Positions 45,845 to 48,570 of a stretch of 64,000 nucleotides of DNA are shown piece by piece. The DNA lies in NCBI RefSeq assembly GCF_003334315.1, contig NZ_QOWR01000011.1; one strand, 5' to 3'. Source of the stretch: Escherichia coli (lineage in GTDB: Bacteria > Pseudomonadota > Gammaproteobacteria > Enterobacterales > Enterobacteriaceae). Within the stretch, counting starts at the first letter, position 1, and each line of letters begins with the position of its first letter. The notes beneath the pieces were generated by a model, which saw nothing but the letters and a program-made list of their open reading frames with translations, did no database searches and was not told the DNA's origin. The translations under genes were made by a program, and so were the position numbers.

Positions 45845-46139
45845 CTCTAGATCTCTTTTTTGCCTGCAAGCCCGGGTAATGCGCCCACAAGTTCTGCTTA
45901 ATCGATTGAAAAAACATCTTTTTTTTAAAGATGTGTTCGATGCTGTGTACCAGTGCTCACAGATGTCTACTTTTTCGCGAAAACGTAGATCTCTACCGCC
46001 CAACGAAAAGCATGAAAGCGATCACGAATCCCATTGGGTCGTCATGTTCTGTCGATCGCATCTTCCTATCCTCGCTCCAGGCCTGCCGCATAACCAATCA
46101 GGCTTCCTACTTACAGAATTGAGAAAAGAGGATGTGGAA

Positions 46140-47756
46140 ATGCTCAGTCAAATTCAACGCTTTGGCGGCGCGATGTTCACGCCAGTGCTGCTGTTTCCCT
46201 TCGCCGGGATTGTGGTGGGTCTTGCCATCTTGCTGCAAAACCCGATGTTTGTCGGGGAATCACTGACCGATCCGAACAGTTTATTCGCGCAAATCGTACA
46301 CATTATTGAAGAGGGCGGTTGGACGGTATTCCGTAATATGCCGCTGATTTTTGCTGTCGGTTTACCCATTGGCCTTGCTAAGCAAGCGCAGGGGCGTGCT
46401 TGTCTGGCGGTGATGGTGAGTTTCCTGACCTGGAACTATTTCATCAACGCGATGGGAATGACCTGGGGAAGCTACTTCGGCGTCGATTTCACTCAGGACG
46501 CGGTGGCAGGTAGCGGTCTGACAATGATGGCCGGGATTAAAACCCTCGATACCAGCATTATCGGCGCAATTATCATTTCCGGCATTGTGACGGCGCTGCA
46601 TAACCGTCTGTTCGATAAAAAACTGCCGGTTTTTCTCGGCATTTTCCAGGGGACGTCTTATGTGGTGATTATCGCCTTCCTGGTGATGATCCCCTGTGCC
46701 TGGCTGACGTTGCTCGGCTGGCCAAAAGTACAAATGGGGATTGAATCTCTGCAAGCGTTCCTGCGTTCGGCGGGTGCACTTGGGGTCTGGGTTTACACCT
46801 TCCTCGAACGTATTCTGATCCCAACCGGTTTACACCACTTCATCTACGGACAGTTTATCTTTGGTCCGGCAGCTGTTGAAGGCGGCATTCAGATGTACTG
46901 GGCGCAGCATCTGCAAGAGTTCAGTTTGAGCGCCGAGCCGCTGAAATCGTTGTTCCCGGAAGGCGGTTTTGCCCTGCACGGTAACTCAAAAATCTTTGGT
47001 GCCGTGGGCATTTCTTTAGCGATGTACTTCACTGCCGCACCGGAAAATCGGGTAAAAGTGGCGGGCTTGCTGATTCCCGCAACCTTAACCGCCATGCTGG
47101 TGGGAATTACCGAACCGCTGGAATTTACCTTCCTGTTCATTTCACCGTTGCTGTTTGCGGTACACGCCGTGCTGGCGGCCTCAATGTCGACCGTAATGTA
47201 TCTCTTTGGTGTGGTGGGCAACATGGGCGGAGGTCTGATTGACCAGGTTTTACCGCAAAACTGGATCCCGATGTTCAGCAACCACGCGGATATGATGCTG
47301 ACCCAAATCGCCATTGGGTTGTGCTTTACCCTGCTGTACTTCGTGGTTTTCCGCACACTGATTCTGCAGTTCAACATGTGCACGCCGGGACGTGAAGATG
47401 CGGAAGTGAAACTCTACTCAAAAGCCGAATACAAAGCCTCGCGAGGCCAAACCACCGCGGCAGAGCCAAAAAAAGAGCTGGATCAGGCTGCCGGTATCCT
47501 GCAAGCCCTGGGCGGGGTCGGCAATATCTCCAGCATTAACAATTGCGCGACGCGTTTACGTATTGCACTGCATGACATGTCACAAACGCTGGATGACGAA
47601 GTCTTTAAAAAGCTGGGAGCGCACGGCGTCTTCCGTAGTGGCGATGCCATTCAGGTGATCATTGGTCTGCATGTATCCCAATTGCGTGAACAGCTCGATA
47701 GCTTAATTAATTCTCATCAATCAGCAGAAAATGTTGCCATTACGGAGGCAGTATAA
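46140..47756 (+). CDS. glvC: PTS alpha-glucoside/arbutin-family EIICB component, continuous IIC-IIB reading frame
   Basis: 538 aa from ATG 46140 ([23 protein letters not shown]...) with SD aagagga; IIC membrane domain then IIB domain with NNCATRLR Cys motif; no internal stop in this window, although some references list glvC and glvB separately. Confidence 0.75.
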
Positions 47757-48570
47757 TGACCAAATTCTCAGTGGTTGTCGCAGGCGGTGGAAGCACCTTT
47801 ACGCCAGGCATCGTGTTGATGCTCCTGGCGAATCAGGACCGTTTCCCGCTTCGTGCACTGAAATTTTATGATAACGATGGTGCGCGGCAGGAAGTGATTG
47901 CCGAAGCCTGTAAAGTCATCCTTAAAGAGAAAGCGCCGGACATTGAGTTTAGTTACACCACCGATCCTGAAGTGGCATTCAGCGACGTTGATTTTGTCAT
48001 GGCGCACATCCGCGTCGGCAAGTACCCGATGCGCGAACTGGATGAAAAAATCCCACTGCGCCACGGTGTTGTTGGTCAGGAAACTTGCGGACCCGGCGGA
48101 ATAGCGTACGGCATGCGTTCCATTGGCGGCGTCCTGGAACTGGTGGATTATATGGAAAAATATTCACCAAACGCCTGGATGCTCAACTACTCCAACCCGG
48201 CAGCAATTGTCGCAGAAGCCACGCGTCGTCTGCGCCCGAATGCGAAAATCCTCAACATCTGTGACATGCCAATCGGTATTGAAAGCCGGATGGCGCAAAT
48301 TGTTGGGCTGCAAGATCGCAAACAGATGCGCGTGCGCTACTACGGCCTGAACCACTGGTGGTCGGCGATATCCCGCAGTTTCAGAAAGGGTTAATGAGTC
48401 AGCAAGTGGCGGTGGAAAAACTGGTCGTGGACGCCTGGGAACAGCGTTCATATCAGCACCTGTGGCAGGCGATTACGTTGTCGAAAACGGTACCGAGCGC
48501 CTCGGTCGCCAAAGCTATTCTGGATGAGTTGCTGGAGGCCAACAAAGCGTACTGGCCAGAGTTACGTTAA
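47756..48570 (+). pseudogene. glvG: Truncated GH4 6-phospho-alpha-glucosidase remnant
   Basis: 212-aa N-terminal piece with NAD-binding motif [12 protein letters not shown] (47756..48394) plus a 70-aa C-terminal piece in another frame (48358..48570); total span about 0.8 kb versus about 1.3 kb for intact GH4 enzymes. Confidence 0.7.

Follow-up and report, generated by a model that had tools for sequence, protein, structure and literature searches.

Organization of the glv locus

The region analyzed here lies in a window of 64,000 nucleotides of Escherichia coli DNA (contig NZ_QOWR01000011.1), to which all positions refer, and is the E. coli glv alpha-glucoside uptake locus (yidP-glvCB-glvG), a known and decaying locus (Table 1). 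This assignment, made in a preliminary description from the letters of the sequence, is supported by matches to TIGR02005, to the Pfam EIIC and EIIB domains, and to the GH4 and GntR/UTRA families, and the sequence facts reported there were all found at the same positions. The operon is already known as cryptic and pseudogenised, and the earlier description of it is correct. In its complete form the module consists of a regulator (yidP), a permease (glvCB) and an NAD+/Mn2+-dependent GH4 6-phospho-alpha-glucosidase (glvG). The start of glvG' overlaps the stop codon of glvCB (TAATG). On the right the module is bounded by yidL, whose 3' end shares 4 bp with glvG'. In strain E2348/69 (B2), which is without the module, yidE abuts yidL directly.

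Table 1. Coordinates of genes and sequence elements at the glv locus of the window
Feature	Position	Strand	Basis
yidP, GntR/HutC-type regulator, 238 aa, divergent from glvCB	45128..45844	-	Pfam GntR + UTRA; all fetched loci annotate it as yidP (GntR family)
yidP/glvCB divergent intergenic control region, 295 bp, non-coding	45845..46139	.	Frame statistics, SNPs, indels
Inverted repeat AAAACATCTTT / AAAGATGTGTT, candidate operator	45911..45937	.	11-nt arms, 91% complementary, 5-nt spacer
Palindrome AGATGTCTACTTTTTCG / CGAAAACGTAGATCTCT, candidate operator	45961..45994	.	Arms of 17 nt without a spacer, 82% complementary
Shine-Dalgarno sequence AAGAGGA, 7 nt 5' of the glvCB ATG	46126..46132	+	Sequence reading
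glvCB, uninterrupted alpha-glucoside PTS EIICB permease, 538 aa	46140..47756	+	TIGR02005, Pfam EIIC + EIIB
glvG', N-terminal pseudogene fragment, 212 aa	47756..48394	+	Pfam Glyco_hydro_4 at 6-184; alignment to intact 440-aa allele
Deletion junction, where the 8-bp direct repeat GAACCACT is left in a single copy	48349..48356	+	Two copies in each of 8 aligned intact alleles
glvG', C-terminal remnant of 73 aa (native residues 368-440), not in the frame of the N-terminal fragment	48349..48570	+	Translation equals the C-terminus of the intact allele
yidL, convergent AraC-family regulator gene	48567..49460	-	As annotated in CP53, whose locus is 100% identical

The product of yidP carries an N-terminal GntR winged helix-turn-helix domain (PF00392, residues 3-64) and a C-terminal UTRA effector domain (PF07702, residues 87-224), and falls short of any NCBIfam equivalog (146.5 bits where 281 are required). 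YidP is presumed to be the repressor of the glv module. It would act, in response to a sugar phosphate, through the two candidate operators at 45911-45937 and 45961-45994, which have an AGATGT/ACATCT motif in common. A scan of positions 45700-46300 returned neither a consensus sigma-70 promoter nor a terminator, and the region upstream of glvCB gave no Rfam match even at a permissive threshold. A CRP-like site with two mismatches (45946-45961) is not treated as evidence, as the number of such sites across the window is at chance level (22 found, 24.7 expected). A review lists glvB under "potential SOS box" (PMC6590174); no LexA box was found in or near the locus, even when one mismatch was allowed.

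The permease gene and its start

The preliminary description had reported a continuous IIC-IIB reading frame of 538 aa (46140-47756), and no stop codon indeed interrupts positions 46140 to 47753. The open frame as a whole extends from 45879 to 47756, and the ATG at 46140 yields the 538-aa form. Its protein matches the alpha-glucoside IIBC family TIGR02005 well above the cutoff (954.7 versus 607.3 bits), with residues 2-523 covering positions 1-524 of the 524 in the model. A PTS_EIIC domain (PF02378, E 8e-71) spans residues 10-346 and a PTS_EIIB domain (PF00367) residues 453-482. GITEP in the IIC part and CATRLR in the EIIB part are established functional motifs of this family, and both are intact (at 322 and, with the phosphorylatable Cys, at 469). 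In alignments of the sampled loci, no lesion was seen in the IIC region of the window's permease, where the preliminary description had allowed for a frameshift; the protein may still be active. Pfam detected EIIC and EIIB only and no IIA domain; PEP-dependent uptake and phosphorylation of alpha-glucosides by the permease would presumably be served in trans by EIIA-Glc/Crr. A 161-aa NCBIfam equivalog, the size of K-12 GlvB, matches only residues 378-538, and it is probably the source of the RefSeq name "PTS sugar transporter subunit IIB" given to the full-length EIICB.

Upstream of the permease, the preliminary description had noted an unusually long open leader in frame and had regarded the true start as uncertain. 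The leader is present: the permease frame is free of stops from 45840 to 46139, and this stretch of 100 codons is real and mildly unusual (P ~0.005 in 20,000 shuffles of the stretch). It is this long open frame that would speak for a start at ATG 45879, which would turn the leader into an N-terminal extension of a 625-aa protein. Such a start is scarcely credible, since the match to the family profile sets in at residue 2 when the protein is read as 538 aa, a strong Shine-Dalgarno sequence precedes position 46140, and the extension would overlap the yidP promoter region. Nor does the leader behave as coding sequence. Polymorphisms in the hypothetical frame comprise six nonsynonymous and four synonymous changes, compared with approximately 13 and 60 in glvCB (P = 0.008), and 1-bp indels in a T-run at ~45909-45921 shorten the frame to 79 codons in 3 of the 22 sampled loci, leaving ATG 45879 out of frame; the permease is intact in two of these three. 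RefSeq places the start at the same ATG in all 22 fetched loci. The doubt about the start is therefore not upheld: the TIGR02005 match from residue 2, the AAGAGGA sequence, the RefSeq start and the non-coding behavior of the frame all favor ATG 46140, the upstream start is already refuted at the sequence level, and the 295-bp "leader" reads as the non-coding divergent promoter/operator region of yidP and glvCB.

A 508-bp deletion in glvG

The GH4 gene downstream of the permease had been described as truncated, and this was borne out. A 212-aa ORF (47756-48394) is followed by a 70-aa ORF (48358-48570) that starts with GTG at 48358 in another frame. The former contains the GH4 N-terminal domain (PF02056, residues 6-184, model positions 2-182 of 183, E 3e-67), while the native-frame remnant (48349-48567) covers just positions 164-211 of the 211 in PF11975 (Glyco_hydro_4C). 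A full GH4 enzyme, with a complete in-frame C-terminal domain in a single chain of ~440 aa, is thus not encoded by this gene.

Alignment with other E. coli, a comparison proposed in the preliminary description, resolved the lesion into one deletion. Relative to the intact alleles (440 aa), a gap of 508 bp follows window position 48348, by which codons 201-367 are lost and the frame is shifted. The authentic part of the 212-aa ORF accordingly ends at residue 200 and the last 12 residues are frameshift read-through, which corrects the earlier view of this ORF as an N-terminal piece of the enzyme. The 8-bp repeat GAACCACT stands at both ends of the 508-bp segment, the copies 508 bp apart, in all eight intact alleles examined, and the junction is identical in all 15 deletion carriers examined. 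A deletion between short direct repeats of this kind carries the signature of slippage or of microhomology-mediated deletion, by either of which it may have arisen. The GH4 gene is a deletion pseudogene, and RefSeq flags it as "frameshifted" in strain CP53, which is 100% identical.

The statement that the enzyme "lost its catalytic core" holds in part. Residues 201-367 are gone, and with them Tyr263 and the greater part of the C-terminal domain, but the NAD-binding domain and the triad Cys169/Asp170/His200 are kept. We take these residues to correspond to the catalytic and metal residues Cys171, Asp172, His202 and Tyr265 of GlvA (literature numbering for 1u8x). The set is incomplete in the window, as Tyr263 lies inside the deleted segment. 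Because glvG is destroyed, any alpha-glucoside 6-phosphate made by the permease should not be hydrolysable, and the pathway would be a dead end.

The preliminary description had itself raised the case that the 212-aa GlvG is a short form that is conserved and functional. Such a protein would consist of the NAD-binding domain by itself, and we consider this reading very improbable. It could appeal to the retained Rossmann-type GH4 N-domain with Cys169, Asp170 and His200, and to the abundance of the short allele, which falls in a 90% cluster with 1,367 member sequences. However, every 212-aa relative ends in the identical 12-residue frameshift tail of E. coli, and these relatives are either the very allele of E. 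coli, chimeras from metagenome assembly or copies full of errors. Beyond the deletion allele of E. coli there is no conserved short form. The best-matching full-length representatives are ~420-460 aa long, with homology ending at residue 201-207, and in an exhaustive search of 1.84 billion representatives homology never extended past about residue 207 of the ORF. (A word-indexed search for short forms recovered chimeras and, for the most part, partial proteins encoded on short contigs; the exhaustive search was cleaner.) In addition, the C-terminal remnant still lies directly downstream, out of frame, and the fragments have collected further lesions, with codon 1 changed from ATG to GTG in two sampled carriers and a stop in the C-terminal remnant in one; RefSeq flags the fragment as a pseudogene. 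A functional short form is already largely refuted.

Distribution of the glv alleles and the split in K-12

Among 5,426 complete E. coli genomes, the glv locus was present in 4,280, and the 508-bp glvG segment was kept in 1,653. The deletion is hence carried by ~2,627 genomes (4,280 locus carriers minus 1,653), K-12 included, and is the majority glvG allele in sequenced E. coli. About 1,150 genomes (~21%) showed no match to the locus, while yidE was found in 5,418 of the 5,426. No plasmid-borne copy occurred among the genomes searched, and few genomes had the locus at several places (median 1, maximum 3). Among the 22 loci compared, both flanking haplotypes of the deletion carriers (CAA and TAC at columns 2327, 2344 and 2360 of the alignment) are shared with intact strains, and the deletion may have arisen once and spread by recombination or may have recurred. 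Strains with an intact module, such as 99-3311 and strains of O157:H7 and O145, share the locus and its synteny with the window, the permease of 99-3311 differing by two residues, but they retain the 508 bp (residues 201-367) and hence an EIICB together with a 440-aa 6-phospho-alpha-glucosidase.

The cryptic glv operon of K-12 (glvC, glvB and glvG beside yidP) shares with the window the locus, the neighbors yidE, yidP, yidL and yidK, and the glvG deletion of 508 bp, down to its junction; over 2,726 bp the two differ by 15 SNPs (99.5% identity). It differs by an extra CAG to TAG change at codon 369 (window 47244), which splits the permease, whereas the window encodes a single ORF. The K-12 amber allele was matched exactly in 348 of the 5,426 genomes. 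The uninterrupted ORF with CAG is the ancestral form, and the glvC/glvB split in K-12 is a later nonsense mutation; the window therefore displays, as one EIICB gene, the ancestral state of what is annotated as "glvC" and "glvB" in K-12. The K-12 homologues of aglA and aglB have been called "cryptic or nonfunctional truncated proteins" (PMC5309279, with reference to Reizer 1994, Thompson 1995 and 2001, and Pikis 2006).

The module occurs in three forms in E. coli (intact, deletion and no match) and could be used as a marker in phylogeny or metabolism, since only the ~30% of genomes in which the deleted glvG segment is kept should grow on sucrose isomers or isomaltose. Otherwise, these findings have little significance beyond a tidy annotation.

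Fate of the orphan permease

Overall, the locus is very probably best explained as a decaying glv module in which glvG was lost by the 508-bp deletion, the orphan permease is drifting and the leader is non-coding. For the permease itself, the most likely account is that of a recently orphaned gene drifting to decay, with no new role. Independent knockouts of the gene were observed: K-12 carries Q369*, Z1323CEC0002 an 11-bp deletion, and mip270_04, whose glvG is intact, W254*. Polymorphisms private to deletion carriers number 7 nonsynonymous and 11 synonymous, compared with 5 and 29 in intact strains, giving a pN/pS of ~0.20 versus ~0.05 (Fisher P = 0.08); as only eight intact strains were sampled, some of the synonymous sites counted as "private" may be older than the deletion, which would bias pN/pS downwards.

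It is conceivable, though unlikely, that the permease is instead kept by selection in the ~2,600 hydrolase-less genomes for a role independent of the hydrolase, either as a sensor or regulator that signals through its phosphorylation state, or for the uptake of sugars that feed another, unrecognised phospho-alpha-glucosidase. The main support for this view is that pN/pS at private sites (0.20) stays significantly under the neutral value (binomial P = 0.0009), and for this reason some residual purifying selection is possible; the same ratio is nevertheless ~3.7 times higher than in strains with an intact operon. The intact GITEP and CATRLR motifs point in the same direction, as does the fact that, of 14 distinct deletion carriers on diverged mosaic haplotypes, up to ~30 SNPs apart over 2.7 kb, 12 have kept the reading frame open. 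However, just 3.2% of random substitutions in glvCB create stops, so that an open ORF is expected at ≤1% divergence even without selection, and the nonsense and frameshift knockouts arose independently. The lack of plasmid copies, the rarity of genomes with more than one place and the share of genomes without the locus also speak against selective maintenance, and drift of the orphaned gene remains the most likely reading.

Related systems

In Klebsiella pneumoniae, aglA encodes a single-chain EIICB and aglB the hydrolase, with homologues in K-12 (PMC5309279). The intact E. coli GlvG allele matches the 6-phospho-alpha-glucosidase structures 6dux, with which it aligns end to end (E 4e-276), and 1u8x (GlvA; E 9e-225). 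The aglA/aglB system is functional in Klebsiella, whereas the hydrolase is deleted in the window. We take 6dux and 6dvv to be Klebsiella pneumoniae AglB, their database label being only "6-phospho-alpha-glucosidase". The logic of an EIICB paired with a GH4 NAD+/Mn2+ phospho-alpha-glucosidase is also shared with glvA-glvR-glvC (malA/malP) of Bacillus subtilis, where the gene order and the type of regulator differ (an RpiR-type GlvR versus the GntR/HutC YidP); the enzyme of the window, unlike that of B. subtilis, is broken. Within E. coli, the bgl, asc and chb/cel systems are likewise strain-variable, silent or inactivated PTS catabolic modules. They are mostly silenced by regulation and can be reactivated, whereas the glvG gene of the window carries an irreversible internal deletion.

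Identity and distribution of the glv locus

The region 45845-48570 is the glv locus of E. coli. Each sequence feature given in the preliminary description was confirmed in the window, and its reading of the genes is correct. Megablast against 5,426 complete E. coli genomes returned chromosomal matches in 4,280, with identities of 98.3-100%, the single exception being one record that aligned over the first 685 bases only, and no plasmid copy was found in this genome set; strain CP53 is 100% identical to the window over the glv stretch. The annotated gene order is ibpB, yidE, yidP (GntR family, divergent), the EIICB gene (glvCB), the GH4 gene (glvG), yidL (convergent), yidK and yidJ. 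As YidP combines a GntR helix-turn-helix with a UTRA domain, it is a HutC-type regulator. The glv operon was reported to be cryptic in K-12, and the earlier work (Reizer 1994; Thompson 1995 and 2001; Pikis 2006) has been summarized in PMC5309279. The feature is an ordinary one that was known before. Our contribution is descriptive: it defines the deletion exactly, together with its repeats, gives the allele frequencies, traces the ancestry of the amber codon in K-12 and offers evidence that decay occurred in independent events.

Approximately 1,146 of the 5,426 genomes lack a match, indicating that the locus shows presence/absence variation; yidE was found in 5,418. In the one locus-negative genome inspected, that of phylogroup-B2 strain E2348/69 (NZ_LT827011.1, 6732-6822), the genes yidP, glvCB and glvG are cleanly missing and 90 bp separate yidE from yidL.

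Features of the glv locus (window coordinates)
Feature	Coordinates	Strand	Source or remark
Permease ORF	45879-47756	+	six-frame ORF list; internal ATG 46140 gives the 538-aa product
538-aa EIICB product	46140-47756		
Divergent intergenic region, 295 bp	between yidP start 45844 (- strand) and glvCB start 46140		
Stop-free stretch in permease frame	45840-46139		100 codons
Open yidP frame upstream of annotated ATG	45845-46003	-	
Inverted repeat	45911-45937		
Inverted repeat	45961-45994		
glvG' N-terminal ORF, 212 aa	47756-48394		six-frame ORF list
glvG' C-terminal ORF, 70 aa	48358-48570		six-frame ORF list; frame differs from 212-aa ORF
glvG' native-frame C-terminal remnant	48349-48567		
Retained GAACCACT copy	48349-48356		

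A deletion in glvG

When the window was aligned with K-12 and with strain 99-3311, which encodes a 440-aa 6-phospho-alpha-glucosidase, one 508-bp gap was found directly after window position 48348, with no further indel. In all eight intact alleles fetched, the missing segment starts with GAACCACT and is directly followed by a second GAACCACT, while the window retains a single copy. Such a footprint is classic for deletion between short direct repeats, which would be the mechanism here. Because 508 = 3 x 169 + 1, the reading frame is shifted: the 212-aa ORF is authentic over residues 1-200 only, its last 12 residues being read-through, and native residues 368-440 persist out of frame. The 508-bp segment was found in 1,653 genomes, compared with 4,280 for the locus; thus, approximately 2,627 of 4,280 carry the deletion, which is the majority allele. 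The junction was identical in 15 of 15 carriers examined, the window included.

The intact E. coli hydrolase allele matches two 6-phospho-alpha-glucosidases of solved structure, 6dux (E 4e-276) and 1u8x (E 9e-225). In the window, the 212-aa protein contains only the GH4 N-terminal domain (Pfam, residues 6-184, E 3e-67), and the native-frame remnant covers only positions 164-211 of the 211-position C-domain model. The deletion and frame shift bear out the view of the preliminary description that the hydrolase is dead, and RefSeq already marks the remnant as a frameshifted pseudogene. The accompanying statement that the catalytic core was lost is only partly correct: Tyr263 and most of the C-terminal domain are gone, but Cys169, Asp170 and His200 are kept; the functional roles of these four residues are taken to be those described in the GlvA literature.

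The claim of a dead enzyme also withstood the search for a conserved functional short form that its author had proposed. An exhaustive search of 1.84 billion representatives revealed no such form; full-length representatives among the best matches were approximately 420-460 aa and the shorter matches were fragments, and homology to the query never extended beyond residue 201-207. A few lower-identity proteins of 209-214 aa, all ending in the identical E. coli frameshift tail, were rejected as true short forms, being either chimeras from metagenome assembly or copies laden with errors. NCBI also has a 271-aa in-frame variant of the deleted gene (P0004, 8 member sequences); one additional base at the junction would bring the two parts back into frame, joining residues 1-199 to 369-440. 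The variant may reflect a genuine compensating change or a sequencing error in a homopolymer.

The permease and its start

As first described, a 538-aa EIICB ORF without internal stops is present, with PTS_EIIC at residues 10-346 (E 8e-71) and PTS_EIIB at 453-482 (Pfam), and it belongs to TIGR02005, the alpha-glucoside-specific IIBC family (NCBIfam, 954.7 bits versus a cutoff of 607.3). Relative to the window, K-12 carries CAG>TAG at codon 369 (window 47244), which accounts for its annotated glvC and glvB pieces. With a 57-bp probe, the TAG allele was matched exactly in only 348 genomes; therefore, the continuous ORF is both ancestral and the commoner form, and in this respect the window is ordinary. 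RefSeq labels the protein 'PTS sugar transporter subunit IIB'. The NCBIfam 'equivalog' NF007255/PRK09702 is 161 aa long, as is the GlvB fragment that follows the amber codon in K-12, and matches permease residues 378-538 only; a model built on a pseudogene fragment is probably the source of this misleading name.

The 295 bp upstream of the start are indeed open in frame. A stop-free run of this length arose in 0.5% of shuffles of that stretch, which is unremarkable since several dozen genes are expected in a 64-kb window. The uncertainty that had been attached to the start was not sustained, and the upstream frame was rejected as coding: within the 538-aa form the TIGR02005 profile begins at residue 2, AAGAGGA precedes the ATG by 7 nt, RefSeq uses the equivalent ATG in every fetched locus, and the SNPs that fall in the hypothetical frame comprise 6 nonsynonymous and 4 synonymous changes versus approximately 13:60 in glvCB (P = 0.008). 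In addition, 3 of 22 loci, 2 of which keep an intact permease, have a 1-bp indel in a T-run (approximately 45909-45921) that leaves only 79 codons open and with which ATG 45879 is no longer in frame.

The promoter is indeed unmapped, as in most E. coli operons of this kind; searches of the intergenic region for a consensus sigma-70 promoter, an Rfam family, a credible CRP box and a LexA box gave nothing. Two inverted repeats, both with an AGATGT/ACATCT motif, are plausible candidate YidP operators. Upstream of its ATG, yidP likewise has an open frame (a TTG-initiated ORF of 291 aa versus 238 aa annotated), so that the region is stop-poor on both strands in the gene frames.

Decay of the permease

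We sampled 22 distinct loci besides the window. Of the 14 different carrier sequences, with the window counted a single time, 12 have an open permease, which is closed in K-12 (Q369*) and Z1323CEC0002 (11-bp deletion). It is also open in 7 of the 8 strains that retain glvG intact. The remaining strain, mip270_04 (696-2312 of its locus), is in the reciprocal decay state, with a dead permease (W254*) and an intact glvG. Only 6 SNPs separate its haplotype from the window. The glvG deletion has either moved between backgrounds by recombination or arisen more than once.

Selection maintaining the orphan permease is the sole mildly novel possibility left, and we consider it improbable. Stops arise from only 3.2% of random substitutions in glvCB, and an open ORF is thus expected without selection at divergence of 1% or less. 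Private polymorphisms were 7 nonsynonymous to 11 synonymous in deletion carriers (pN/pS approximately 0.20) and 5 to 29 in intact strains (approximately 0.05; Fisher's test between classes, P = 0.08), and both classes fall under the neutral expectation (P = 0.0009 for carriers). These class-private polymorphisms suggest that constraint on glvCB is relaxed though not absent, and some function may be retained in carriers. The simplest reading is that glvCB was orphaned recently and is now under relaxed constraint, in a locus that the species is discarding piece by piece.

Insertion sequences were also observed at the locus. In strain 1332KP (NZ_CM173849.1, approximately 21943-22233; H50/H60), glvG is interrupted by IS200/IS605-family elements (tnpA, TnpB), and in several intact-glvG strains (mip270_04 and loci L020 and L021) the yidL position of other strains is taken up, downstream of glvG, by a transposase pseudogene of the IS200/IS605 family together with an unnamed partial CDS.

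Both glvB and ibpA are named in a review (PMC6590174) as genes having a 'potential SOS box'; no CTGT-N8-ACAG site was found in or near the glv locus of the window, even with one mismatch. Elsewhere in the window, sites at 56496-56625, 56427-56442, 42255-42327, 26524-26604 and 32081-32123 comprise Rfam matches and a perfect LexA-type box, CTGTATAAATAAACAG, just upstream of istR (150 bits). The other matches are a ROSE_2 thermoregulator located upstream from ibpA, the dnaA antisense RNA AsdA and the ES036 sRNA, and all four are known E. coli features near oriC.
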